Virus record (IMG/VR): IMGVR_UViG_3300008448_000085
Span: 1-59,711 of that record
DNA: 59,711 nt
From: a virus
Lineage: Duplodnaviria; Caudoviricetes
Direction: 5' to 3' (one strand)
Below the pieces are notes generated by a model that had not been told where the DNA came from, did not search any database, and was given only the letters and a program-made list of their open reading frames with translations. Position numbers and translations under genes: made by a program. Shown piece after piece: positions 16,644-55,686 of the stretch (positions are counted from its first letter, which is position 1; every line of letters begins with the position of its first letter).

Positions 16644-16908
16644 CGTTGTCCTCCGTGTCCACAAGGTAGTTACACCGGGCATGCGCCCACTCCTCAACAA
16701 AGCTGTCAACAAGGTTGTCCTTATCCTGGGTATTCAGCAGGCAGATGATTCCGCGGTCTTCCTCCGCGTCGAACTGGAACGTGCCCAGCGTGTTGTCCAT
16801 CTGCTTGCCCGACCGCAGGCATACCCGTACCGGAAACAGCAGGGGGAATCGGTTGTCCATCCACCGCTTCAGCCGCCGCAACAATTTCTTCCGCCAGTCT
16901 GGGTCCAT
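16564..16908 (-). CDS. SprT/zincin-like protein with EExxH variant motif
   Basis: FVEEWAH...HHHPTFW. Confidence 0.55.
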   Translation of the reverse strand: MDPDWRKKLLRRLKRWMDNRFPLLFPVRVCLRSGKQMDNTLGTFQFDAEEDRGIICLLNTQDKDNLVDSFVEEWAHARCNYLVDTEDNDADPHHHPTFWAEYGRIQRALREIAW

Positions 16909-17191
16909 CGGTGAGCCTCACAATAAGCAGCCAGTCCCTGCCGTTCCTGCGATGGAGGACAACCGGAACCTTGTCCCCGGCATCGCGAACGGCCTGATCC
17001 ATCCACCTATAGGGATTGCCTGCCTCGCACCGCTTGACCTCCAGATGTAGGTTTTCATGGGAGGAAACCACATCCGGCGACTCTGTTCCGCCAGCGAACT
17101 GCTGGCCACGCCGGGCCTGACCGCCAAAGATGGAGGCCCACTCCTTGGCTGCGTCCCTCTCGCCCCGGGCACCCTTGTCTCGGCTTCTCAT
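16721..17191 (-). CDS. Holliday junction resolvase, Hjc-like PD-(D/E)XK
   Basis: SRDKGARGER, SPDVV, LEVKR. Confidence 0.85.
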   Translation of the reverse strand: MRSRDKGARGERDAAKEWASIFGGQARRGQQFAGGTESPDVVSSHENLHLEVKRCEAGNPYRWMDQAVRDAGDKVPVVLHRRNGRDWLLIVRLTDGPRLAEEIVAAAEAVDGQPIPPAVSGTGMPAVGQADGQHAGHVPVRRGGRPRNHLPAEYPG

Positions 17192-17678: not shown

Positions 17679-18048
17679 TGTCTGGCTCCCTGGAGGACAT
17701 GTAGGCGCCCATCACTTCCAGCATGTGGTGCGGCCTGTGTTTTCCGGCACCGACCGACAGGATGTAGGCCGACAGGGTTTCCCCGCTCTGGATGTCCGCG
17801 AGGTCGGCCACCAGCCGACCGTACTCGTCACGGATGCAGTCGTAGGGAATGAGCCTTAGCCGCTCGGCATCGGCGTGAATCTCGCACCAGTCAACGATGT
17901 GCTGCATGGCGTCATGGTGACACCACACGCCGGCCACGGTGACGGCCATCTCGTACCGCGACCGGGACAGGGGGCAGTACGTTTTGACCAGCAGCGTGTC
18001 ACTGCGGGTGACGCGGGAGATGGTGACTATGGGGTTCGACTCGTCCAT
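17665..18048 (-). CDS. Staphylococcal nuclease (thermonuclease)-like OB-fold protein
   Basis: DTL...VAGV...RDEYGRLVAD...ETLSAYILSVG. Confidence 0.65.
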   Translation of the reverse strand: MDESNPIVTISRVTRSDTLLVKTYCPLSRSRYEMAVTVAGVWCHHDAMQHIVDWCEIHADAERLRLIPYDCIRDEYGRLVADLADIQSGETLSAYILSVGAGKHRPHHMLEVMGAYMSSREPDNADG

Positions 18049-18425
18049 GATCCGACGTTGCGCTCTCGTTCCTTGAGGTAGAAGTCAGGCAGTGGGGCCG
18101 GCTCGTAACCGAGATGCTTCTTGTGCTTGAGGTAAGCCAGGAACTCAGGGCCATAGTTATCCGGGTCACACTCCTGCTTGAGGCCTAATAGTATACGCTT
18201 GTTCAGTTCCGGAAAGCAACCGACAATCTTGCCACTGTGGTAGATGCCGTGACAGCGGTCGCAGAGTCTCAAGTAATTCCGCACATCATGCTTGCGACCC
18301 GCGCCGCCGATGATGTGATGGACCTCCAAGCTGCGCCGGCCATCTGACTCAGGCCAGTGGCACACAGCACAACAGCGATGCTCGGCCACCCATTCCAGAA
18401 GGGCGGCACGTTCAGCCTTGTTCAT
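18027..18425 (-). CDS. HNH endonuclease
   Basis: CAVC...LEVHHI...NYLRLCDRCH. Confidence 0.85.
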   Translation of the reverse strand: MNKAERAALLEWVAEHRCCAVCHWPESDGRRSLEVHHIIGGAGRKHDVRNYLRLCDRCHGIYHSGKIVGCFPELNKRILLGLKQECDPDNYGPEFLAYLKHKKHLGYEPAPLPDFYLKERERNVGSWTSRTP

Positions 18426-18855
18426 TCTGTCTCTCCAGATCGCGAGACAGGTATTGGATGGCGCGCGACAGCCTGGACATGCACTCCCCATGCTCACCAG
18501 ACATGGCGATGTTGCAGAGGTGGCAGACAACGCCACGCACATGGCCAAGGTTGTGGCAGTGATCTATCCGAAGATCGGAACCGACTAGCGGTTTGCCGCA
18601 GCACTGGCAGTTGGGAACCTGCCAGAAAGCAAAGACCTCATCAACCGAAACCTTGTAATTGAGCGCTACCTTCTTGGCCCGATACAGAATCGGATCGGCC
18701 TTGCGCTTGCGACACTGCGACTCGCGAACCTTCCGGCACACGCATTCCTTGCAGTGCCAGTTCAATCCATCCGGGGTTTTGGCCCGCTTGCCAAACGCGC
18801 TGATCGGCTTGTCCTCGCCGCAGCTGGGGCACCTTTTCCGTGCTTCAGATATCAC
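18412..18855 (-). CDS. Endonuclease VII-like nuclease with N-terminal Zn finger
   Basis: CPSC...CKEC; CQCC...IDHCH..GHVRGVVCHLCN. Confidence 0.85.
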   Translation of the reverse strand: MISEARKRCPSCGEDKPISAFGKRAKTPDGLNWHCKECVCRKVRESQCRKRKADPILYRAKKVALNYKVSVDEVFAFWQVPNCQCCGKPLVGSDLRIDHCHNLGHVRGVVCHLCNIAMSGEHGECMSRLSRAIQYLSRDLERQNEQG

Positions 18856-18892
18856 GCTCCTTCATCGTTCCTACCTCCGTAGGGCGTGGCGT

Positions 18893-18920
18893 AGTGTACG
18901 GGCGATCACTTTTGAGTCAA
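18893..18920 (-). promoter_or_regulatory. Promoter TTGACT-N16-TACACT
   Basis: Upstream of EndoVII gene; identical boxes at 50551-50578. Confidence 0.65.
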
Positions 18921-18929
18921 CATTAGATC

Positions 18930-19240
18930 GCGAAGAGGCGCAGTGACTCCCAGCGAAAACGCCGGAAGTCAATCGCTTAGACCGCGATTTCGGCGGCAGC
19001 GACAGGATGCTGATTGTTTAACGCCGTTGTATCCTTCTCTCCCAGACACGGCGCTTGCGGTTGGCTGTGGCCCGGGGAGGGCGGAGTCACCAGTTCCCAT
19101 CCCCTCAGTCGCAAGAGTTCGGATGGATTGCCTTCCGGCGGGTCACATCCGTGTTGCCCCCTCTTGTTACATCCCATGCGGGACAGGTTGGCGGGGAGCC
19201 GATCTGCAGGCCATGTGCCCTTCCGCGGGCTATGTCGGTC
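18930..19240 (-). ncRNA. Putative ~310-nt structured non-coding RNA
   Basis: Own promoter, no credible ORF, many stems, GNRA loop, long-range 8-bp pairing. Confidence 0.6.
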
Positions 19241-19243
19241 CAA

Positions 19244-19271
19244 ATAATAACAGACTGTCTTCCTGAGTCAA
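19244..19271 (-). promoter_or_regulatory. Promoter TTGACT-N16-TATTAT
   Basis: Points into the 18930-19240 non-coding gap. Confidence 0.65.
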
Positions 19272-19960
19272 ATCGTCGCCAAGCCCTCTGGCGTGGCCCC
19301 AGAAGGCTGCATGCCTCCAGGCGGTACAGCCACCCCAGAAATAGTGGACGCCCGTCCAGCGTCACCTGCGGGCCTGTAATAGTATCTCTCGTCTTGGCTG
19401 ACATCCCACTCGCAGGACTCAGCCTGATAAATGTCCTTCTGCACCCGGTATCCGCACGCCACAGGATCGGGTGTGGCACCGCAGAAGTAGCCGTCCTTCC
19501 ATGCTATGCGATTGGTCGGCAGGGCCGCGAGGTTGCCGTCCTCCAAGGCCATGACATGGGCGCACTTGTTCTGTTCCGGCGTCAGTGTAAAGCCAGGGCG
19601 CTCTGACGAGTTGGGCAACCAATCGACTGTAAACAGGTAGCTGCCGGGGGCTTTGCCGGATCGCAGGTAGCAGTCTGCCTGATGATCTCTTAGGTACGAA
19701 AACACCGTCACAACCGGACGGTCGCTGAAGCAGTCCCAAAGCTGAACATCCCCCAGCGGTCGGCCGGCATGGCCGGTCAACGTCAGGGCATGGATTGGAA
19801 CCCCGCGGTAGTGCGCCCCTGATTTCAGCATGACATGAAAGCCCAGCGCCCTCCCGGTAATGGATTGTATGGCGAAGGCATAGGCCTCTTCATGTCCGGA
19901 GTTCTTGCTGATGAACTCTCGCCTGACGAAACAGCTCAGATACGGGATGTCAGCGTTCAT
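19268..19960 (-). CDS. Conserved hypothetical phage protein (NADIP...PIHAL...QLWDCFS...YLFTVDW)
   Basis: Motifs recurrent in aquatic phages. Confidence 0.75.
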   Translation of the reverse strand: MNADIPYLSCFVRREFISKNSGHEEAYAFAIQSITGRALGFHVMLKSGAHYRGVPIHALTLTGHAGRPLGDVQLWDCFSDRPVVTVFSYLRDHQADCYLRSGKAPGSYLFTVDWLPNSSERPGFTLTPEQNKCAHVMALEDGNLAALPTNRIAWKDGYFCGATPDPVACGYRVQKDIYQAESCEWDVSQDERYYYRPAGDAGRASTISGVAVPPGGMQPSGATPEGLATI

Positions 19961-20180
19961 CAATCTTCCACGCCTCTTCGCAGTCGAACACATTCGGCGC
20001 CCGCTCCCCGGCCTGTGACATGTCCACCACCCCCGGGTAGTGACGCATGAGCCGGCGAGCCTCATCGCGTACGTGGCGGGGGATTTTCTTGTATCCATCC
20101 GGCAGGCTGGGGTGCATCAGCCGCAGGAGAAAGCCCCTGGTGCTAAGGACTGATCGGGTTCGCTGGCTGGGAAGAGTCAT
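19950..20180 (-). CDS. BPSL0761-like small protein
   Basis: MTLPSQRTRSV...FLLRL...VRDEARRLMRHYP. Confidence 0.7.
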   Translation of the reverse strand: MTLPSQRTRSVLSTRGFLLRLMHPSLPDGYKKIPRHVRDEARRLMRHYPGVVDMSQAGERAPNVFDCEEAWKIDER

Positions 20181-20243
20181 GTGGTCACCAGAACGTATTA
20201 GAAAACGTGCGGTTTGCGTTGCTTTTCAATCATGACTGGGGTG

Positions 20244-20279
20244 TTACGCAGCAGCGTGCTGCATAATTGCTGGTTCTCA
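20244..20279 (+). mobile_element. Degenerate att half-site (left cassette boundary)
   Basis: Hairpin TTACGCAGCA/TGCTGCATAA + 6 bp + GTTCTCA (20273-20279), complementary to TGAGAAC at 20557. Confidence 0.5.
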
Positions 20280-20543
20280 GTCCCGATACTTCGCCTTGAG
20301 CGCCTTTAGCACCTTGCCTGCCGTTGTGTGTCCAGCCGCCGTCATCTCCAATCCGCCCAATAGAAAACCAGTCTGCTCGGCATACTTGCCCATCATTGTG
20401 ACCGCTTGATGCGCCGCTTCGCTCTGCCGCTTCAGCAACGCCCGAAGGGCTACGATCTCGTCGCGGGCATCATGGAGCGTCTCGCCGGCGTCTTCCGCTT
20501 CCCCGTCCTCCAGCCATCGGCTGATGCGTGTCACAACGTCCAT
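20277..20543 (-). CDS. Hypothetical protein inside putative cassette
   Basis: MDVVTRI...DARDEIVALR; stop codon lies in the GTTCTCA box. Confidence 0.7.
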   Translation of the reverse strand: MDVVTRISRWLEDGEAEDAGETLHDARDEIVALRALLKRQSEAAHQAVTMMGKYAEQTGFLLGGLEMTAAGHTTAGKVLKALKAKYRD

Positions 20544-20935: not shown

Positions 20936-21300
20936 TTGGTTCTCTCCAGCAGTCTTCGCAGCGTGTCAGCGTACAGCCCGTCGCGCCCGTACCCGGCATA
21001 CCACTCTATGGCCTCACGCTCCTTAGCAGTGAGCGTCAAGTTTTCTTGCAAGGAATCTTGACAGTCCATCTGGATGATCACATCGCCATTGACCACTGAC
21101 AGCGTGGCGTCTTGGTCTGCGATGCGGCGGATCGCCTCCTTGAGGCTCGCGATCTCACGGCAGGCCCCGGCGCTGGAGTGGGCGTAGGTTTCGCACACCG
21201 TCACCAATCGCTCAATCTCATCGGCCGCTTCGTCGCAGAGCTTGTCTATAGCCTTGAACGAATACGCCCTATCCCGCAGGGAGTCCGTGAGTTTAGTCAT
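20932..21300 (-). CDS. Hypothetical protein (EAADEIERL; LTAKEREAI...LRRLLERT)
   Basis: ATGA coupling; recurrent phage motifs. Confidence 0.7.
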   Translation of the reverse strand: MTKLTDSLRDRAYSFKAIDKLCDEAADEIERLVTVCETYAHSSAGACREIASLKEAIRRIADQDATLSVVNGDVIIQMDCQDSLQENLTLTAKEREAIEWYAGYGRDGLYADTLRRLLERTK

Positions 21301-22502: not shown

Positions 22503-22614
22503 CTCTTTCCTCCTTGACGAACGTAACGGGAAAAACGTGATCAACTTCAAACTGATCCAAGATGCCTTGGAGCGTGTCATCCAACAGAGCATCAGGACGC
22601 TCTTGTGAGTCCAT
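22309..22614 (-). CDS. Hypothetical protein, overlaps next gene
   Basis: Starts at the helicase 3' end. Confidence 0.4.
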   Translation of the reverse strand: MDSQERPDALLDDTLQGILDQFEVDHVFPVTFVKEERDERGFWSRLWDSVKACFGFRPRPVASDCGEQGGDREGGQDDGIPPGANSRSGPSAAELAVRAKP

Positions 22615-23626
22615 GCCTTCGGTCCCTTTCCTTCTTGAACAAGCCTTTGACCCAGCCGTTGATGCCGGGATTGTTGACGGCCCAGTTGATGTAGTGGTCT
22701 GGCAGTTGCGACATCTTCAATCCGCCGTACTTCCCCTTGAGCGGGTTCATGTACGTGCCGACCGGCCGCTTGCCGCGCCACTGGATGTCGATGTCGCTGC
22801 CAACCACCCGTCCGGAAGCGCGGCCTTCAGTGGCCCGACGCATGGCTTCGATCTGCTGGGCAGCCAAGCGGCGCTCCAGCTCCTGCGCAGCCAGGGCATC
22901 CATCTCTTCCGGCGTCAGCGGCTCTTTGGCAGCCCGCTCGCGGATGACCTTCTTCGTCTCGCCGTCAGCCTCGCAGAACATGTCCACGGCGGTGATCAGC
23001 GAGTGGTCGATGGACCCGGTGGTGCAGTCAACAATCTTGAACCGCGTCTTCTTGCTGGCGGCAATCGCCGCCTTGCGTGACTCCGCGGTGCTGTTTGGGA
23101 AATCCACCACACCCGGGAGAGGGCGGGTCGCCCGGCCGACGCACTGCAGCCAGAACGACCTTGAGCGGGTGGGCCTGCCAAGGATCAGCGTGGCCGTAGG
23201 TGGATAGTCAAAACCCACGGCAACCACTTGGCAGTTGCACAGGACCTGCACCTCGCCCGACTTGAATCTCCGCAGCGCTTCAGCCCGCTCCTCTTCCGGC
23301 TGGGTGCCGTACACGTAGACGGCCGGCACGCCGTAGTTGTTGGTCAAATAATGAGCCACGCCCTTGGAACCGTTGACACTGGCGGTGAAGACCACGGTCT
23401 GGCCCTCACGCTCTTCGGCCGTGATCTGGCACACGCGGTGATGGGTACGTTCCTTGTCCATCTCTTCCTGCAGCGCCTTCTGCGCAAAGTCCCCGCCAAC
23501 GATCTTCACGCCCGACAAATCCAACGACTCCACCCGCGCTAGTCGGCAAACAGGGGGCACGGCCCATCCGTTGGCGATGGCCCACTGCATGTCGTATCCG
23601 CCGACGAGCTGTTCGTAGAATTGCAT
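22592..23626 (-). CDS. SF2 helicase, C-terminal (RecA2) half
   Basis: QTVVFT, NCQVVAVGFDYP (motif V), QCVGRATR (motif VI); GGAGGGAG just upstream. Confidence 0.85.
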   Translation of the reverse strand: MQFYEQLVGGYDMQWAIANGWAVPPVCRLARVESLDLSGVKIVGGDFAQKALQEEMDKERTHHRVCQITAEEREGQTVVFTASVNGSKGVAHYLTNNYGVPAVYVYGTQPEEERAEALRRFKSGEVQVLCNCQVVAVGFDYPPTATLILGRPTRSRSFWLQCVGRATRPLPGVVDFPNSTAESRKAAIAASKKTRFKIVDCTTGSIDHSLITAVDMFCEADGETKKVIRERAAKEPLTPEEMDALAAQELERRLAAQQIEAMRRATEGRASGRVVGSDIDIQWRGKRPVGTYMNPLKGKYGGLKMSQLPDHYINWAVNNPGINGWVKGLFKKERDRRHGLTRAS

Positions 23627-24129
23627 TGCTCCCTCCGAAGCATTGGTTTACCGTCCATCCGGAACGGGGTTGCCGTAAACCCGGCGACCATGGCCCCCTT
23701 CTCTTGGAAATGCCTGAGCATCTCCACCACGGGATCGCTGCACATCATGTGTGCCTCGTCCACAATCACCAGCTCAAAGTCAGTGAACCGCTCGTAGCGT
23801 TTCTGTCCTCCACGCCGAGACAGCAGCGTCTGCTTTGATGCCACCACAACCTTGGGCGTGAACCATTCGTCCGATCCCGCCCGGTACTCCGCCATCTCAA
23901 CGTCAGGGTCTTCCTCCAGAATCTCGCGGACCTTATCCACCGCCTGCCACAGCAACTCGCGCAGGGGGACGATGATCAACGTGCGGCCTGCCATGCGATT
24001 AGCGAGGCTGCAGAAGATCACCGTCTTCCCGGCGCCAGTGAACACATGATTCAACGTGGACTTCACTCCCGACCGCTTGGCCTGGAGGTTGTCTTCGATG
24101 ATCTGGTCTTGGTAGTCGCGGAGTAACAT
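23539..24129 (-). CDS. SF2 helicase, N-terminal (RecA1) half
   Basis: LRDYQ, TGAGKT, DEAH, TATP motifs. Confidence 0.88.
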   Translation of the reverse strand: MLLRDYQDQIIEDNLQAKRSGVKSTLNHVFTGAGKTVIFCSLANRMAGRTLIIVPLRELLWQAVDKVREILEEDPDVEMAEYRAGSDEWFTPKVVVASKQTLLSRRGGQKRYERFTDFELVIVDEAHMMCSDPVVEMLRHFQEKGAMVAGFTATPFRMDGKPMLRREQCNSTNSSSADTTCSGPSPTDGPCPLFAD

Positions 24130-43360: not shown

Positions 43361-43902
43361 CGGTTCTTGACCCTGTATGCGTGTTTCTCAATGACCTTTT
43401 CGCGGAGTTCGGAAGTCTTGGCGCCCGGGTTTTTTTTCTTTTCCCGGCGCACCAAGTCTTTGACGATGGATTCGTTGATCAGCTTTCGTTGCGGGGCGGA
43501 TGGGCCGGGGTCGTAGTTCACGCTCCCGGTCACCATCATCCGGCGTTCCTTGGCGACGTTCAGAACGTCATCGTTGGATGACACCCAAGCCTTGGGGTCG
43601 CGCCAGCCGCGGTGATCTGCGATGCCGCCGCAGTAGTACTTGCCAGAGATGTTGATGCCGGCCTGACGAGCCTCGTCCGACACGTACTTGGCCTGCCTCG
43701 CAGGCATGGCGTCCAGCTGCTGGTTGTTCATCCGGCCTTCCATGAAGGCTCGGTCAGTCCCTTGGGTCCCCGGAGGGCACTGAAGGGCGACCATGGCCGC
43801 CCATCGCTCGCCGTAGCCCATGTCAAGGACGCGCTTGTAATGTTGCTGCACCGCCGCGGAGGCAGAGGCGATCTCAAGCGGCAGAGCTGTTGACGTACTC
43901 AT
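43357..43902 (-). CDS. Hypothetical phage protein
   Basis: AAGGAG RBS; MSTSTALPLEIA. Confidence 0.7.
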   Translation of the reverse strand: MSTSTALPLEIASASAAVQQHYKRVLDMGYGERWAAMVALQCPPGTQGTDRAFMEGRMNNQQLDAMPARQAKYVSDEARQAGINISGKYYCGGIADHRGWRDPKAWVSSNDDVLNVAKERRMMVTGSVNYDPGPSAPQRKLINESIVKDLVRREKKKNPGAKTSELREKVIEKHAYRVKNR

Positions 43903-44368
43903 GGTAGCTCCTTTCGTATACCGCACTGGCCTCTTCCGCGGTTTTGAAGTGCCCTAGATAAGTGGCCCGGAACCGCGCGTAGTATCCACTGCAAGACTTA
44001 GTGACGCCGCGCGGCAACCCGTTTTTTCTATTCACAACCCTGCCACAAACATTTTGCGAACGAGTCAGAGGCCGAAGGTTTTCAATCCTGCAATCGGTGC
44101 GAATGCGGTTAATGTGATCCAGTTCGCTTGGGAGCGACCCAAACTTCTGCAGCCACACAAAACGATGCAGCGATATGGGCTTCCTGGCCACTCGCGTGTA
44201 GTAGTAGCCCTTGTCGTTCTTGCGCCACGTATACCGGCTGGCTGCGGCGACGAATTCTTGGTCAACCAAGGCGTCGGCGGGGAGGGGGCGGTCTGGCGAC
44301 CGATCCCAGCGGCACCGAGATGCCGCCTGCTTAACTGGGTTTTTGGCGATATCGAACGGAAGGTCCAT
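43874..44368 (-). CDS. HNH homing endonuclease with AP2-like domain
   Basis: LHRFV...LDHINRIRTDCRIENLR; YLGHFKTAEEA. Confidence 0.9.
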   Translation of the reverse strand: MDLPFDIAKNPVKQAASRCRWDRSPDRPLPADALVDQEFVAAASRYTWRKNDKGYYYTRVARKPISLHRFVWLQKFGSLPSELDHINRIRTDCRIENLRPLTRSQNVCGRVVNRKNGLPRGVTKSCSGYYARFRATYLGHFKTAEEASAVYERSYHEYVNSSAA

Positions 44369-48423: not shown

Positions 48424-48580
48424 TCCATTCACCGCAGGCGTTATGGGATTCAATCACGGGGAATGCGCAAGTACTTTGGTCAGCCCACGCTGGGGGGAAC
48501 CTCTTGCACAGCCCGATGTTCAGTTGCTGGTGTTCCGGGATCGTCTGGAACCACCAACGGCAATCCTGGCACTGCATCAA
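48383..48580 (-). CDS. Small Cys-rich protein
   Basis: CQDCRWW...GLCKRFPP...CGEW. Confidence 0.7.
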   Translation of the reverse strand: MMQCQDCRWWFQTIPEHQQLNIGLCKRFPPAWADQSTCAFPVIESHNACGEWSAKAPEDTSSADA

Positions 48581-49080
48581 CCACCTCTACCTTCTGGATG
48601 TAACTCAACCCATCCCCAGTTCTTGCCGGCATGGATCAGCGAGATGGCGGTCTGGGTGACGCCGAACCATCTCGCCAGAAATCCGCATGGGCCACCGCGC
48701 TGCCCTCTCATCGGAGGATTCCTCTTTAGGAACTTCTTGATCAGCCTGGCCTCCAGCTCAGTTAGCTTGGAGTTGCTGCTTTTTTCGCCCCGCACGGATC
48801 TGCCCTTGGCCACCTTGTCCGACATATTGTCGGCTGAAGTTCCCAAGAATAGGTGCTGCGGATTGACGCAGGCCGGATTGTCGCAGTGGTGGCAGACAAG
48901 CATGCCATTGGGTATGGCGCCAACAAACTCTGAATACGACACGCGGTGAGCGTATCGCGTCTTGCCCTTGTAGCTGATCGCGCCGTAGCCGGTGTCAAAG
49001 CGGGCCGCTGTCCATTCCCAGCATCCGCTGCTACGGACGGCAACCTTACTCGCAAGTCTTTCTTTAGCTGATTGTCGCAT
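48577..49080 (-). CDS. HNH homing endonuclease
   Basis: CWEW...AHRVSY...VCHHCDNPACVNPQHLFLGT. Confidence 0.92.
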   Translation of the reverse strand: MRQSAKERLASKVAVRSSGCWEWTAARFDTGYGAISYKGKTRYAHRVSYSEFVGAIPNGMLVCHHCDNPACVNPQHLFLGTSADNMSDKVAKGRSVRGEKSSNSKLTELEARLIKKFLKRNPPMRGQRGGPCGFLARWFGVTQTAISLIHAGKNWGWVELHPEGRGG

Positions 49081-49087
49081 CAAAATC

Positions 49088-49648
49088 TCACTGCTCTTGC
49101 TGGGAAGCGGTTGGCTCTGCGGCCGGCGTCGGCAGAAGTGCGGGCGCCGCATCGACAACCTCAACCCTCTGAATGGTCATTGCGGCCTCCAGCACCTGCC
49201 GCCTGAGTTCTGCCTCAAGCTCTTCCTCGCTCATAAGCTCTAGTGGCTTCTTAGCGCCCCCCATGGCAGTGTTGCCCGTCACAAGCCGCACAACCGAATC
49301 CAGCATTTTGGTGCGAAACGCTCCTCCGACAGGCGCGTCGAAGTACTGCTTGAGAAATGCGTTGGCAAACCCACGCACGCCGCCGAAGTACTCCATGAGA
49401 ACTTCCAGCAGCTCGGACGAGTGGGGGATGTTTGCCCCGCCAATCCGTGCCGATGAGACGAAGAGGTCCACGGCCCCCTTCTCAATCTCGGCTAGCTTCT
49501 TGTTCTGCTTCTTCTGGCGAGACGATCTGCCCTGCTTGTTCCGGCACTTGCGGCACCGGGAGTGAAGACCGTCCTTGGACTTGTGGAAGTTCGCCGTGGT
49601 GGCGGGATAAGAAGTCCCGCACTCTACGCAAGCCTTGTAGTCAGACAC
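49088..49648 (-). CDS. Zn-finger protein, terminase small subunit candidate
   Basis: CVEC...CRKC; LELMSEEELEAEL tail; upstream of terL. Confidence 0.5.
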   Translation of the reverse strand: MSDYKACVECGTSYPATTANFHKSKDGLHSRCRKCRNKQGRSSRQKKQNKKLAEIEKGAVDLFVSSARIGGANIPHSSELLEVLMEYFGGVRGFANAFLKQYFDAPVGGAFRTKMLDSVVRLVTGNTAMGGAKKPLELMSEEELEAELRRQVLEAAMTIQRVEVVDAAPALLPTPAAEPTASQQEQ

Positions 49649-55091: not shown

Positions 55092-55107
55092 CTACATATC
55101 AATGTTC
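55092..55107 (-). promoter_or_regulatory. Putative late promoter motif
   Basis: GAACATT-GATAT-GTAG overlapping EndoVII stop. Confidence 0.55.
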
Positions 55108-55686
55108 AATATGCGTCGTTCTTGTTACGGGGTACGCCTGCTCGCGGTAATCAACGTCCAGTGTTCTGACCAGATAGTCAGCGGCAGCACGCAGCACATC
55201 CGGCCTCTCTAGGCTGATCCCCACCAAGGAATTGCACTTACTGCACAGAACGCCGCGAACCGCACCATCCGAATGCCGATGGTCGATGTGCTGGTGTCGG
55301 CTGTCGGAGAACCGCTGACCGCAGCACTCGCACGCTTCATTGGCCGTCATCTGCGCGGCCGTTTCTCTTGGAAGTCCGTACCGGCGAGAGCGGCTGTGGA
55401 CGCTGTCACACACTCTGCAAAACCGACCAAGCCCGTCGTTTGCGGCGCGGTATACGGCAAACTCAGCGGACGGCTTAATGATGCCGCAGGACGCGCAATG
55501 CTTAGATTTGGGAACGTGCGAGGCCCCCTGGCGAGCCTGCTTTTGTTTTCTTAGCGATTGGCTGCGGGCGTACGCGCAGGGCTTGCATGTGTTAGCTCTG
55601 CCGTCCGCGTTCCGCGAGTTGTGAAACTCTTCAAGCCGCTTGACTTCCCCGCACGCCCGACACGCCTTCGCAGCCGCGATAATCAC
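55099..55686 (-). CDS. Endonuclease VII-like homing endonuclease with two Zn fingers
   Basis: CRAC..CKPC, CASC..CRVC; IDHRHSDGAVRGVLCSKCN. Confidence 0.88.
   Translation of the reverse strand: MIIAAAKACRACGEVKRLEEFHNSRNADGRANTCKPCAYARSQSLRKQKQARQGASHVPKSKHCASCGIIKPSAEFAVYRAANDGLGRFCRVCDSVHSRSRRYGLPRETAAQMTANEACECCGQRFSDSRHQHIDHRHSDGAVRGVLCSKCNSLVGISLERPDVLRAAADYLVRTLDVDYREQAYPVTRTTHIEH

Follow-up and report, generated by a model that had tools for sequence, protein, structure and literature searches.

What lies in the long gap that precedes the nuclease genes of this phage, and what could it do there? The window, by which we mean the whole stretch of DNA analysed (59,711 nucleotides; IMG/VR record IMGVR_UViG_3300008448_000085, Caudoviricetes), contains a gap between the ORF 19268..19948(-) and the EndoVII-like ORF 18412..18855(-). 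This had been claimed in a sequence-only reading of the same DNA, which placed in the gap a promoter-driven, structured RNA of a class that it did not recognise. Our analysis bears out the gap, the promoter, most of the helices and the complement of a loop given in that reading, but not its CAAGAG/CUCUUG helix, its closing helix or its end point at 18930.

Genomic context

The locus is composed of the following features:

19244..19271 (-), sigma-70-like promoter: TTGACT, 16 nt, TG-n-TATTAT; 10/12 positions plus the extended TG; directly 5' of the element
18918..19232 (-), whole type-1 RNA element, about 315 nt: begins with a conserved UAG and closes with repeat copy X2
18893..18920 (-), second promoter-like site: TTGACT, 16 nt, TACACT; 9/12; between the RNA and the EndoVII-like gene
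18412..18855 (-), EndoVII-like nuclease gene: Pfam PF02945, 5.8e-14; phrog_2633
18027..18425 (-), core HNH endonuclease gene, 132 aa: Pfam PF01844, 8e-07; the conserved downstream neighbour

The sigma-70-like promoter is present as proposed (TTGACT-16-TATTAT, extended TG, at 19271..19244(-)), and it is one of 2 promoter-like sites, both on the minus strand, that a consensus scan returned in 18300..20300 against 0.6 expected. Transcription is predicted to start at about 19238-19236, which is 4-6 nt 5' of the conserved 5' end of the element. The promoter of the window is not a trait of the family: in 13 of 30 relatives the upstream ORF stops exactly on the first conserved triplet of the element. 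Sites resembling the second promoter also precede inserted nuclease genes in L002, L003 and other relatives (by eye).

The EndoVII-like gene is an insert in only some relatives (missing from L004, L066, L037 and others), and a locus search anchored on it returned 0 relatives. The product of the core HNH gene carries PF01844/PF13391 alone in its 132 aa and has 109 relatives in IMG/VR. Among bacterial genomes this HNH was found in just 3 MAG contigs, and as these bear differing labels (Phycisphaerales, Myxococcales, Rubrivivax), no host can be inferred. The sequencing runs listed as containing the stretch comprise 20 DNA and 0 RNA runs, and ARAGORN reported 0 tRNA or tmRNA genes in the window.

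An uncatalogued structured RNA

The type-1 element is very probably a real conserved structured RNA, and it is the founding member of an uncatalogued RNA family, carried by a clade of uncultured freshwater phages with ~60-kb genomes and direct terminal repeats. The conserved block found by blastn and nhmmer extends from 19235/19232 to 18917/18941, and the 3' end of the element lies near 18918, past the second copy of a repeated word, and not at 18930 as had been set earlier. The element comprises at least 11 helices and two pseudoknot-type pairings, and its fold is modular: a 5' domain (P1, PK1, P3, P4 and the optional arm P5) is followed by a central three-way junction (P6, P7, P8), by P9, and by a 3' domain consisting of P10 and of the long hairpin P11 flanked by two copies of a word. 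This fold is kept by compensating substitutions, and RNA-type tetraloops occur on the strand used by the neighbouring genes. Thermodynamically, the fold is no more stable than expected by chance (MFE -158.8 kcal/mol, z = -0.89, with 18 of 100 shuffles reaching this stability), so that the case for the RNA is evolutionary and not energetic.

Rfam 15 gave 0 matches in the whole window at the gathering score. At E<=10 the interval 18600..19600 yielded three noise matches of 14.6-17.3 bits (mir-1250, sR38 and HIV-1_SL4), far under their gathering scores, and eight related loci of both RNA types yielded 0 matches at E<=1. The view of the sequence-only reading that the RNA belongs to no recognised class therefore holds, with covariation far above controls and no Rfam match at the gathering score or, noise aside, at E<=10. 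Named phages provided no DNA match to 18000..20200 and no tblastn match to the HNH protein. In the literature we found no account of such an RNA preceding HNH genes: the main text of PMC10690425 does not contain 'HNH', while its ~10,000 supplementary candidates may include the locus, and 10.64898/2026.10.21.760802 makes no mention of HNH, phage or endonuclease. A group I or group II intron was rejected, because the flanking genes are unrelated and vary among relatives and no Rfam intron matched.

That the region is protein-coding, through either the 88-aa ORF 18977..19243(-) or an antisense ORF of 107 aa (18943..19266(+)), has a practically negligible probability. Both ORFs exist, and long stop-free antisense frames are found in many relatives, but the lengths of the open frames equal those of dinucleotide shuffles (fraction at least as long 0.12-0.67 antisense, 0.06-0.99 sense). 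Moreover, relative L019, which is 83% identical, has 4-5 stops per sense frame and differs from the window by indels of 1, 3, 2, 1, 1, 1 and 2 nt. The 88-aa ORF, the conservation of which had been named as a point against a functional RNA, is not conserved and has no Pfam match.

Architecture of the element

The 5' domain contains the following parts:

19217..19230 (-), P1: hairpin, GCCC / GGGC, 6-nt loop
19189..19213 (-), PK1: pseudoknot, UGGC (19213..19210) with GCCA (19192..19189), across the 5' strand of P3
19156..19199 (-), P3: GCUCCC (19199..19194) with GGGGGC (19161..19156); encloses P4
19171..19184 (-), P4: hairpin, GUCCC / GGGAU
19162..19167 (-), ACAAGA(G): single-stranded, nearly invariant, 5' of the 3' strand of P3
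19120..19151 (-), P5: optional arm, ends in a GGAA tetraloop

Several helices that had been proposed from the single sequence are kept in relatives with compensating changes, namely P1 (GCCC/GGGC), P4 (UCCC/GGGA) and the arm P5 (CGGAUG/CAUCCG with GCC-GGAA-GGC). When own partner strands were swapped for foreign ones, P1 gave -5.58 vs -3.92 kcal/mol (permutation p=0.0002) and P4 p=0.001; the P4 site holds one or two hairpins in relatives. P5 is missing in 4 of 30 relatives (L005, L006, L059, L073), and its loops include 10 GNRA and 1 UNCG on the sense strand, compared to 2 GNRA on the antisense strand. PK1 is paired in 98.3% of cells of an unfitted MAFFT alignment, with covariation in 2 of its 4 pairs (CG:19 UA:8 AU:1; CG:20 UG:6 UA:4), and P3 is 97.2% paired, with changes on both sides in 4 of 6 pairs. 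Two earlier pairings had to be given up: in CAAGAG/CUCUUG the AAGAG is nearly invariant and its putative partner varies without rule, and the closing CGACA/UGUCG has a 5' arm that precedes the conserved start and is missing from the closest relative, L019 (by eye). For ACAAGA(G) no covarying partner was found. The 5' domain is exchanged or missing in L003, L048, L069 and L075. Features that the sequence-only reading did not contain are P3, PK1, P6, P8 and the 12-bp terminal hairpin P11.

The central and 3' domains are made up as follows:

19055..19114 (-), P6: UUGCG (19114..19110) with CGCAA (19059..19055); closes the junction that holds P7 and P8
19074..19104 (-), P7: GGGGA / UCCCC, 21-nt loop with the conserved word GUGACUCC (19090..19083)
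19063..19072 (-), P8: small hairpin, GGC-CACA-GCC, by eye
19022..19053 (-), P9: CGCCGU / ACGGCG, apical part purine-rich; followed by a conserved AAACAA (19019..19014)
18971..18989 (-), P10 in the form of the window: AAUCGC / GCGAUU; holds repeat copy X1 (18987..18977)
18944..18971 (-), P11: 12-bp terminal hairpin with a UUUU loop
18943..18950 (-), GGAGUCAC: forms the 3' strand of P11 and is a complement of the P7 loop as well (PK2)
18923..18933 (-), X2: repeats the 11-nt word of X1 (18987..18977); the two copies flank P11

Both sides of P6 change in 6 of 6 modelled pairs, and at least 8 different helix sequences can be counted by eye. The previously proposed helices P7 (GGGGA/UCCCC) and P9 (CGCCGU/ACGGCG) also display compensating changes: all 6 pairs of P7 covary, with 84% of cells paired, and P9 is 89-92% paired with covariation in 2-3 pairs (GC:22 CG:13; GC:22 AU:7 CG:5 UA:1). 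The AAUCGC/GCGAUU helix (P10) is present as proposed, but it turns out to be the window's own form of a variable hairpin, the loop of which carries GGCUCC in most relatives. A pairing between this GGCUCC and GGAGUC was tried and rejected: 90.5% of cells are complementary, but covariation is nil and 500 of 500 shuffles score as high.

P11 is paired in 93.0% of cells, compared to 87.9% in shuffles, none of which (0/500) reaches as high, and its outermost pair varies (CG:12 GC:9). No U-tract terminator was seen 3' of it, either by the consensus scan of the window or by eye in relatives. The earlier reading had correctly located both the loop word (19083..19090) and its complement (18943..18950). 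The pseudoknot suggested there (PK2) is paired in 97.6% of cells and passes the swap test (p=0.002), but this reflects mostly conservation, with one covarying pair (CG:26 UA:2 AU:1, i.e. a change in three sequences), and P11 is a rival helix: one 3' strand is common to both, and PK2 and P11 are mutually exclusive. In the divergent lineage L259/L271/L279/L309 PK2 shrinks to 5 bp (by eye).

The X1/X2 word is shared within phages throughout the family (mean 8.2 nt within a phage vs 4.0 nt between phages, p=0.0002). No complementary partner of the word was found in the element; when the whole element was scanned, one of 30 bins reached p=0.005, which is not significant once corrected. A decoy model for X1/X2 was dismissed, as the stretch 5' of the P10 loop is equally complementary to foreign copies (p=0.23, 0.87).

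The 107-position centre of the element is covered by the model R1. When 35 distinct sequences were aligned by fitting to the model, 81.7% of cells are paired, compared to 60.4% in shuffles, covariation amounts to 0.508 vs 0.157 (0/500 shuffles as high; slid controls <=0.177), and both sides change in 15 of 18 pairs. Similar values were obtained from 22 metagenome sequences (84.0% vs 59.5% paired; covariation 0.562 vs 0.161), some of which come from contigs of the same phages as the IMG/VR set. PK1, P3 and PK2 taken jointly in the unfitted MAFFT alignment are 97.6% vs 90.3% paired (0/500 shuffles as high), and tests of own against foreign strands in 23 representatives gave p values of 0.0002 to 0.0036 for P1, PK1, P3, P4, P11 and PK2. 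Four-base loops of the GNRA or UNCG type number 22 of 64 on the sense strand vs 2 of 55 on the antisense strand. Counts of G.U vs A.C (22 vs 34) say nothing about the strand, as they are skewed by one non-pair column and by register slips.

Distribution and linkage to the HNH gene

Type-1 homologues were found in 37 of 69 distinct HNH loci of IMG/VR phages, and in all 37 the RNA lies upstream of the HNH gene on the same strand. A pattern search based on the RNA only gave true hits in 25 of 119 of the matches listed for metagenomes and in 16 of 119 of those listed for viral sequences, the first pattern being too loose. Whether the RNA tracks with the nuclease block, a question raised by the sequence-only reading, can be answered in the affirmative from these RNA-first loci: among the matches listed that have enough flank, the core HNH gene lies downstream of the RNA, and in the same orientation, in all 7 viral loci and in 15 of 17 from metagenomes, i.e. 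in 22 of 24. The exceptions are L259 and L271, which carry the RNA without HNH and in which the next gene is convergent and conserved.

The distance between the two is often very short. The HNH start lies 22-35 nt past the last modelled base in L034, L037, L043, L064, L066, L068, L069 and L073, about 60 nt past it in L005 and L006, and 24-63 nt past it in L229, L251 and L254; at least 9 distinct HNH-anchored loci, plus the latter three, thus have HNH close behind the RNA.

Other relatives have, in the same slot, a structured RNA unrelated to type 1; this type 2 shows compensating changes in 19 of its 47 predicted pairs. When R1 was run on the 69 sources it matched the 37 type-1 loci and zero type-2 loci, and the idea that types 1 and 2 form one family was rejected. 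R1 matched nothing in the first 50 kb of phage Seurat. L069 and L063 share 93-98% identity as far as the RNA, and their HNH genes are nearly the same, yet they carry different RNA classes. RNA class does not follow the HNH tree, which forces at least 9 changes of type 1 and at least 6 of type 2. In 15 of the 69 HNH loci neither class lies within 1.3 kb, and in 5 of the relatives concerned (4 of them >=90% complete) the type-1 core occurs nowhere in the genome.

Possible functions

Judging from sequence comparison, we tentatively prefer the interpretation that the element is a co-transcribed leader, which would gate the nuclease genes in cis. It would be transcribed at the front of a message that encodes the core HNH enzyme and, where present, the product of the EndoVII-like insert, and would act on how much of this message is extended or translated. 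Its 3' strand GGAGUCR would alternate between P11 and pairing with the conserved P7 loop (PK2), and some signal, be it a protein, a small molecule or the ribosome, would set this switch. As expected of a leader, the element has a 5' untranslated or intercistronic position on the same strand across relatives (37/37; 22/24 among the matches listed) and a structured core backed by covariation. Where HNH starts 22-35 nt behind the RNA there is no space for a promoter, and since no U-tract terminator was seen either, the HNH message must there begin with the RNA as its 5' portion. The promoter directly 5' of the element corresponds to the usual promoter-leader-gene layout, and both the mutually exclusive pairings on one strand and the replacement of type 1 by type 2 in one slot, as seen in alternative riboswitch or leader classes, support this interpretation. 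On the other hand, the window and many relatives have another promoter-like site downstream of the RNA and ahead of the next gene, so that the nucleases need not depend on a leader. P11 lacks a terminator tail, and the distance from its GGAG to the HNH start is 25-45 nt, so that neither of the classical expression platforms is evident. In L259 and L271 the convergent next gene leaves nothing downstream to regulate, and neither RNA class is near 15 of the 69 HNH loci. To our knowledge, the size and complexity of the element exceed those of any nuclease leader.

The main rival to this interpretation, which we regard as doubtful, is a stand-alone structured non-coding RNA gene that acts in trans as a scaffold or partner of a protein of the phage or the host, as a decoy against host defence or in an RNA-only assembly. 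The position beside HNH would then be mere conserved gene order. In the window such a gene would have its own strong promoter, with a second promoter after the element, and its size, two pseudoknot-type pairings, GNRA loops and invariant unpaired words are typical of RNAs that fold compactly. L259 and L271 carry the RNA between opposite-strand genes without any HNH, HNH occurs without RNA at 15 of 69 loci, and RNA class departs from the HNH tree (at least 9 and at least 6 forced changes); the complementary P7 loop and P11 strand could also pair between molecules. However, the element is not followed by a terminator, the same-strand adjacency of HNH holds in 22 of 24 RNA-first loci among the matches listed, and the upstream ORF stops on the first triplet in 13 of 30 loci, leaving no promoter space. 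In at least 8 loci with HNH 22-35 nt behind the RNA, a separate transcript is impossible unless it is processed. It appears unlikely that the element is a free-standing ornate phage RNA with a folded body, the two unrelated folds being different alleles of a determinant of specificity or competition. Such an RNA might self-associate via the P7-loop and P11 strands, or bind a nuclease or a host defence factor; its allele types would be the RNA analogue of immunity or incompatibility types, with X1/X2 as the specificity element.

The remaining explanations are all improbable. A replication element, either a priming or origin-opening transcript in the style of ColE1 RNA II or T4 oriF/G or a protein-bound DNA site, is quite improbable, even though none of the 64 window ORFs scanned matched a primase or DNA polymerase and the element lies at the end of a helicase/recombination block, directly after the helicase gene in L079, L082 and L083. 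The inverted repeat flanked by two phage-specific direct repeats and the cassette-like exchange among relatives would also suit an origin, and the alternative pairings are reminiscent of ColE1 RNA II. Nevertheless, the ColE1-like primer that had been suggested earlier finds no support: the consensus scan of 18300..20300 detected no promoter-like site for an antisense regulator on the opposite strand, GC content is 0.575-0.592 across 18001..20000, without an AT-rich unwinding stretch, and the sense-strand GNRA/UNCG loops and covariation point to selection on a folded RNA and not on protein-binding DNA. Very improbable, too, is a ribozyme, e.g. a self-cleaving or processing RNA that cuts the message between the replication and nuclease blocks. 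Its pseudoknotted core with invariant unpaired nucleotides and its position between two gene blocks, often abutting the preceding stop codon, would agree with such a role, but the ribozyme families of Rfam 15 give no match even at E<=10, and a 5' domain that is replaceable or missing (L003, L048, L069, L075), together with substitution by an unrelated class, would be unusual for a catalytic core. The least credible of these roles is that of a guide or partner RNA for the adjacent HNH nuclease in a HEARO/omega-RNA-like ribonucleoprotein. HNH adjacency is consistent and the phage-specific X1/X2 words could in principle guide, but near-identical HNH proteins follow unrelated RNA classes, and HNH without RNA and RNA without HNH both occur. 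No match of the RNA longer than 12 nt was found elsewhere in the genome (E about 1), to which its complementarity does not exceed chance, and X has one site with 1 mismatch (21147..21157) vs 1.3 expected by chance. The hypothesis of such a guide in the sequence-only reading finds no support in the lack of a match to RF02033, in the neighbour being a 132-aa, HNH-only protein and not IscB, or in the 2 loci that carry the RNA without HNH.

If the element is a leader, as we prefer to think, it would be far more elaborate than any other known control element of a phage nuclease and would imply a signal that phages sense before making the HNH enzyme. If it stands alone, it would be a tractable new member, at ~300 nt, of the small group of ornate phage RNAs whose function is unknown. 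In either case the family is a natural experiment, with ~60 diverged copies, an optional arm, a replaceable 5' domain and an unrelated fold swapped into the same slot. Because the window supplies a strong E. coli-type promoter, the element is directly testable by reporter fusions and structure probing.

Comparison with known systems

It is rare for a large RNA to combine many covarying helices with pseudoknots; of those studied, most are ribozymes, riboswitches or cores of ribonucleoproteins. The leaders of the T4 homing endonucleases I-TevI, seg and mob contain hairpins that sequester the SD sequence and have nested promoters. Like these, the type-1 element is a structured RNA that directly precedes a phage nuclease gene of the same orientation, with a nested promoter in the window, and it shares the presumed role of restraining a potentially harmful nuclease. 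In contrast to the T4 leaders, which are single hairpins of tens of nt over the RBS, it is a pseudoknotted RNA of ~315 nt and eleven helices, its GGAG strand is clear of the HNH start region, and the gene downstream is core and not mobile.

HEARO, the omega RNA of IscB (RF02033), is likewise a large structured RNA (~300 nt) beside an HNH-containing gene. IscB-type proteins combine a split RuvC with HNH in about 400-500 aa. The type-1 element differs from HEARO in that the HEARO model does not match it, RNA and protein do not co-vary, and it has no guide-like match.

ROOL and GOLLD, which occur in phages and prophages, are large ornate RNAs reported to assemble into RNA-only complexes (10.1101/2024.12.08.627333). 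They resemble the type-1 element as large ornate phage-associated RNAs of unknown function that were first known from metagenomes; the type-1 element differs in having at most about half their size, no Rfam match, no adjoining tRNAs and a tight linkage to a single gene.

With ColE1 RNA II the element has in common that a promoter drives an RNA of several hundred nt with alternative pairings, in a genome without a recognisable primase. Unlike RNA II, it has no antisense partner promoter and no evidence of an origin, and it is linked to a nuclease gene instead of an initiation site.

Riboswitch classes such as preQ1 and SAM substitute for one another before the same genes. The type-1 element is larger than almost all aptamers, and no terminator or SD-sequestering platform was recognised in it, unlike in riboswitches. 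However, it has a conserved core and a variable 3' platform with alternative pairings, as riboswitches do, and, in the manner of substituting riboswitches, types 1 and 2 share one slot before orthologous genes and have been exchanged between near-identical genomes.

A structured RNA upstream of the HNH gene

The gap 5' of the nuclease cluster holds a real, modular, structured RNA of about 315 nt (type 1; window 19232..18918, minus strand). The case for it rests on relatives, because single-sequence folding of the window's RNA does no better than shuffles (z = -0.89). The gap itself, its promoter (19271..19244) and the two mutually complementary words (19083..19090 and 18943..18950) are as the sequence-only reading had described them.

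The upstream protein as query led to 3 loci, and an alignment of four HNH proteins to 109 relatives, 80 of which were kept; together with the window these gave 69 distinct regions, each the 1.3 kb upstream of HNH, the core 132-aa endonuclease gene. Iterated nhmmer, started from the gap of the window, settled on 37 of these 69 regions (32 full length). By profile, the conserved block runs from a UAG triplet (19232..19230) to about 18941, and in a blastn comparison with L019, the closest relative at 83% identity, it reaches about 18917. A profile seeded with L002 assigned 15 of the 32 leftover regions to a second RNA (type 2), and L047 and L056 carry, by eye, a type-2-like variant; several other HNH loci have neither RNA, and a nuclease gene lies directly upstream instead. 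R1, a 107-position covariance model covering helices P6, P7 and P9, picks up 37 type-1 loci from the 69 sources and none of type 2; in five relatives that have no RNA close to HNH, it finds no match anywhere in the records.

Fold of the type-1 RNA

The order of elements was read from A3, an alignment of 30 sequences, and from the domain alignments A4 to A7.

Elements of the type-1 RNA (P, helices; PK, pseudoknot-type pairings)
5' end: conserved UAG, then hairpin P1
PK1: YGGY with RCCR, the RCCR strand lying inside P3
Between PK1 and P3: conserved CUGAAGAUCGG stretch
P3: encloses P4
After P4, before the 3' strand of P3: nearly invariant ACAAGAG
P5: optional arm with a GNRA loop
P6: closes a junction containing P7 and P8
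P7: large loop, GCUGnCGACUCC
P9: followed by GAACAAC
P10: loop usually GGCUCC
P11: long hairpin, 3' strand GGAGUCR
X1 and X2: window 18977..18987 and 18923..18933, minus strand; phage-specific 5-13-nt word either side of P11

The 5' domain of this standard form is absent from L003, L048, L069 and L075.

Pairing and covariation (observed versus shuffled alignments)
A5 (35 distinct sequences; fitted to R1 and hence biased towards the structure), P6+P7+P9: paired cells 81.7% versus 60.4%; covariation 0.508 versus 0.157; 0/500 shuffles as high
A9 (22 metagenome matches; model-fitted with the same bias, some contigs being the same phages as IMG/VR records), P6+P7+P9: paired cells 84.0% versus 59.5%; covariation 0.562 versus 0.161; 0/500 shuffles as high
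A3 (unfitted MAFFT), PK1+P3+PK2: paired cells 97.6% versus 90.3%; covariation 0.253 versus 0.108; 0/500 shuffles as high
A3 (unfitted MAFFT), P11: paired cells 93.0% versus 87.9%; covariation 0.257 versus 0.190; 0/500 shuffles as high

Slid controls reached a covariation score of at most 0.177 in A5, where 15 of 18 pairs change on both sides, and slid PK1/P3/PK2 reached no more than 52.8% paired cells in A3. An alignment-free comparison of own with foreign strands, made on 23 representatives with less than 80% identity, gave p values of 0.0002 to 0.0036 for P1, PK1, P3, P4, P11 and PK2. Loop types show the strand: of the 64 four-base loops on the sense strand, 15 are GNRA and 7 UNCG, against 2 such loops in 55 on the reverse complement.

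Some parts of the fold are weaker. No covariation supports pairing between the P10 loop and GGAGUC. PK2, in which a word of the P7 loop (19090..19083) pairs with the 3' strand of P11 (18943..18950) and which is mutually exclusive with P11, covaries at one pair, where the window, L019 and L074 show compensating changes; in a divergent lineage (L259, L271, L279, L309) the P7 loop differs and, by eye, PK2 is down to 5 bp and P11 is retained. The word shared by X1 and X2 averages 8.2 nt within a phage versus 4.0 nt between phages (p=0.0002), and the two are clearly co-maintained. Their arrangement around P11 is the same in most relatives, the copies being alike per phage and unlike across phages. 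The search for a complementary partner of X1/X2 found none, whether in the stretch 5' of the P10 loop, where p=0.23 and 0.87, or elsewhere in the element.

A second RNA in the same slot

Type 2 is a structured RNA of about 250-280 nt, unrelated to type 1, which occupies the same slot before HNH. Compensating changes affect 19 of its 47 predicted pairs (RNAalifold), a long-range helix among them, and an Rfam match was not found.

Full-length type-2 loci
L002:3716-3971
L004:3670-3938
L017, L030, L032, L038, L039, L057, L060, L062, L063 and L081

On the HNH tree (69 rows) at least 9 changes are needed for type 1 and at least 6 for type 2. Identity between L069 and L063 is 93 to 98% as far as the RNA, and their HNH proteins are almost the same; yet L063 carries type 2, whereas L069 has type 1, represented by its central and 3' domains. 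On sequence comparison, this difference is a clean cassette exchange.

Genomic setting

The window is a single complete IMG/VR virus record of 59,711 bp with direct terminal repeats (100% complete, CheckV). PHROGs and Pfam identified the terminase large subunit, portal, structural proteins, Erf, exonuclease VIII, SSB and a DEAD-box helicase, and no DNA polymerase or primase came up in a scan of 64 window ORFs. From roughly 12 kb on, almost all genes lie on the minus strand. Similar sequence was not found in named phages, and the sequencing runs containing the stretch are DNA runs labelled freshwater or 'fungus' metagenomes, with no RNA runs among them.

Nuclease genes of the window
18412..18855, minus strand: EndoVII-like gene of the nuclease cluster (PHROGs/Pfam)
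18027..18425, minus strand: HNH gene of the nuclease cluster (PHROGs/Pfam)
16721..17191: PDDEXK/RusA-like gene of the nuclease cluster (PHROGs/Pfam)
43874..44368, 48577..49164 and 55099..55686, minus strand: three extra free-standing HNH or EndoVII-type genes

The last three are dispersed among structural and packaging genes and look like homing-type inserts. The start of the EndoVII-like gene is odd: a good Shine-Dalgarno sequence, GGAGG, lies 8 nt 5' of an ATG (18865) whose frame is a mere 6 codons long (window 18840..18880, minus strand), and within that frame the long ORF begins, out of frame, at a GTG (18855). This GGAGG sits inside a small hairpin, and the leader of L024 is similar by eye. 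The helicase consists of two overlapping ORFs (22592..23626 and 23539..24129, minus strand; ResIII/DEAD, then Helicase_C); both domains share one ORF of at least 471 aa in L083, and the split could stem from a frameshift, recoding at this site or an error in sequencing.

In every HNH-anchored type-1 locus the RNA lies upstream of HNH on the same strand. HNH starts 22 to 35 nt behind it in L034, L037, L043, L064, L066, L068, L069 and L073, and about 60 nt behind it in L005 and L006; the distance is 300 to 800 nt where an extra nuclease gene is inserted, the window included. A pattern built on the RNA only gave 16 true hits among 119 matches listed in viral records, with HNH downstream in 7/7 with long flanks, and 25 among 119 listed in metagenomes; of the 17 listed true metagenome matches whose downstream flank is 700 nt or longer, 15 have HNH 24 to 940 nt away. 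In the other two, L259 and L271, a conserved convergent gene follows the element and HNH is missing. Their divergent RNAs (L259:700-1120, L271:930-1389) score 27-30 bits with R1, and about 150 nt past the element are conserved between them too.

What lies upstream of the RNA differs between loci: the window has a phrog_3704 protein, others a member of a 200-aa family or the helicase. In 13 of 30 type-1 loci the conserved UAG is the stop codon of the preceding ORF, be that the 200-aa family or the helicase, and the window's promoter is therefore not a family feature.

Possible roles of the RNA

Where HNH starts a few dozen nt behind the type-1 RNA, with no terminator between, the RNA must be part of the HNH message. 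This, together with the promoter-leader-gene layout of the window, the alternative pairings that share a strand and the second fold at the same slot, makes a leader of the nuclease genes the best explanation, if a tentative one; such a leader would act in cis on the nuclease genes behind it. A stand-alone RNA acting in trans, somewhat less probable, would fit the second, nested promoter, the pair of loci that lack HNH, the HNH loci that do without the RNA, and the complexity of the fold.

Other roles seem far less plausible: that of an origin or primer is improbable, a ribozyme slightly more so, and a guide of HNH very unlikely. A protein-coding region, the least credible reading of all, is contradicted by stop-free stretches whose length matches that of dinucleotide shuffles on both strands, and by L019, which has 4 to 5 stops per sense frame in all frames and indels relative to the window that are mostly not multiples of three.

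The sequence-only reading did not recognise the class of this RNA, and we likewise found no Rfam family and no published description; the candidate lists in the supplement of PMC10690425, which lay outside the search, may include it. The type-1 RNA belongs with the structured RNAs that precede phage nuclease genes, among which its size, pseudoknots, modularity and interchangeable second fold are unusual.
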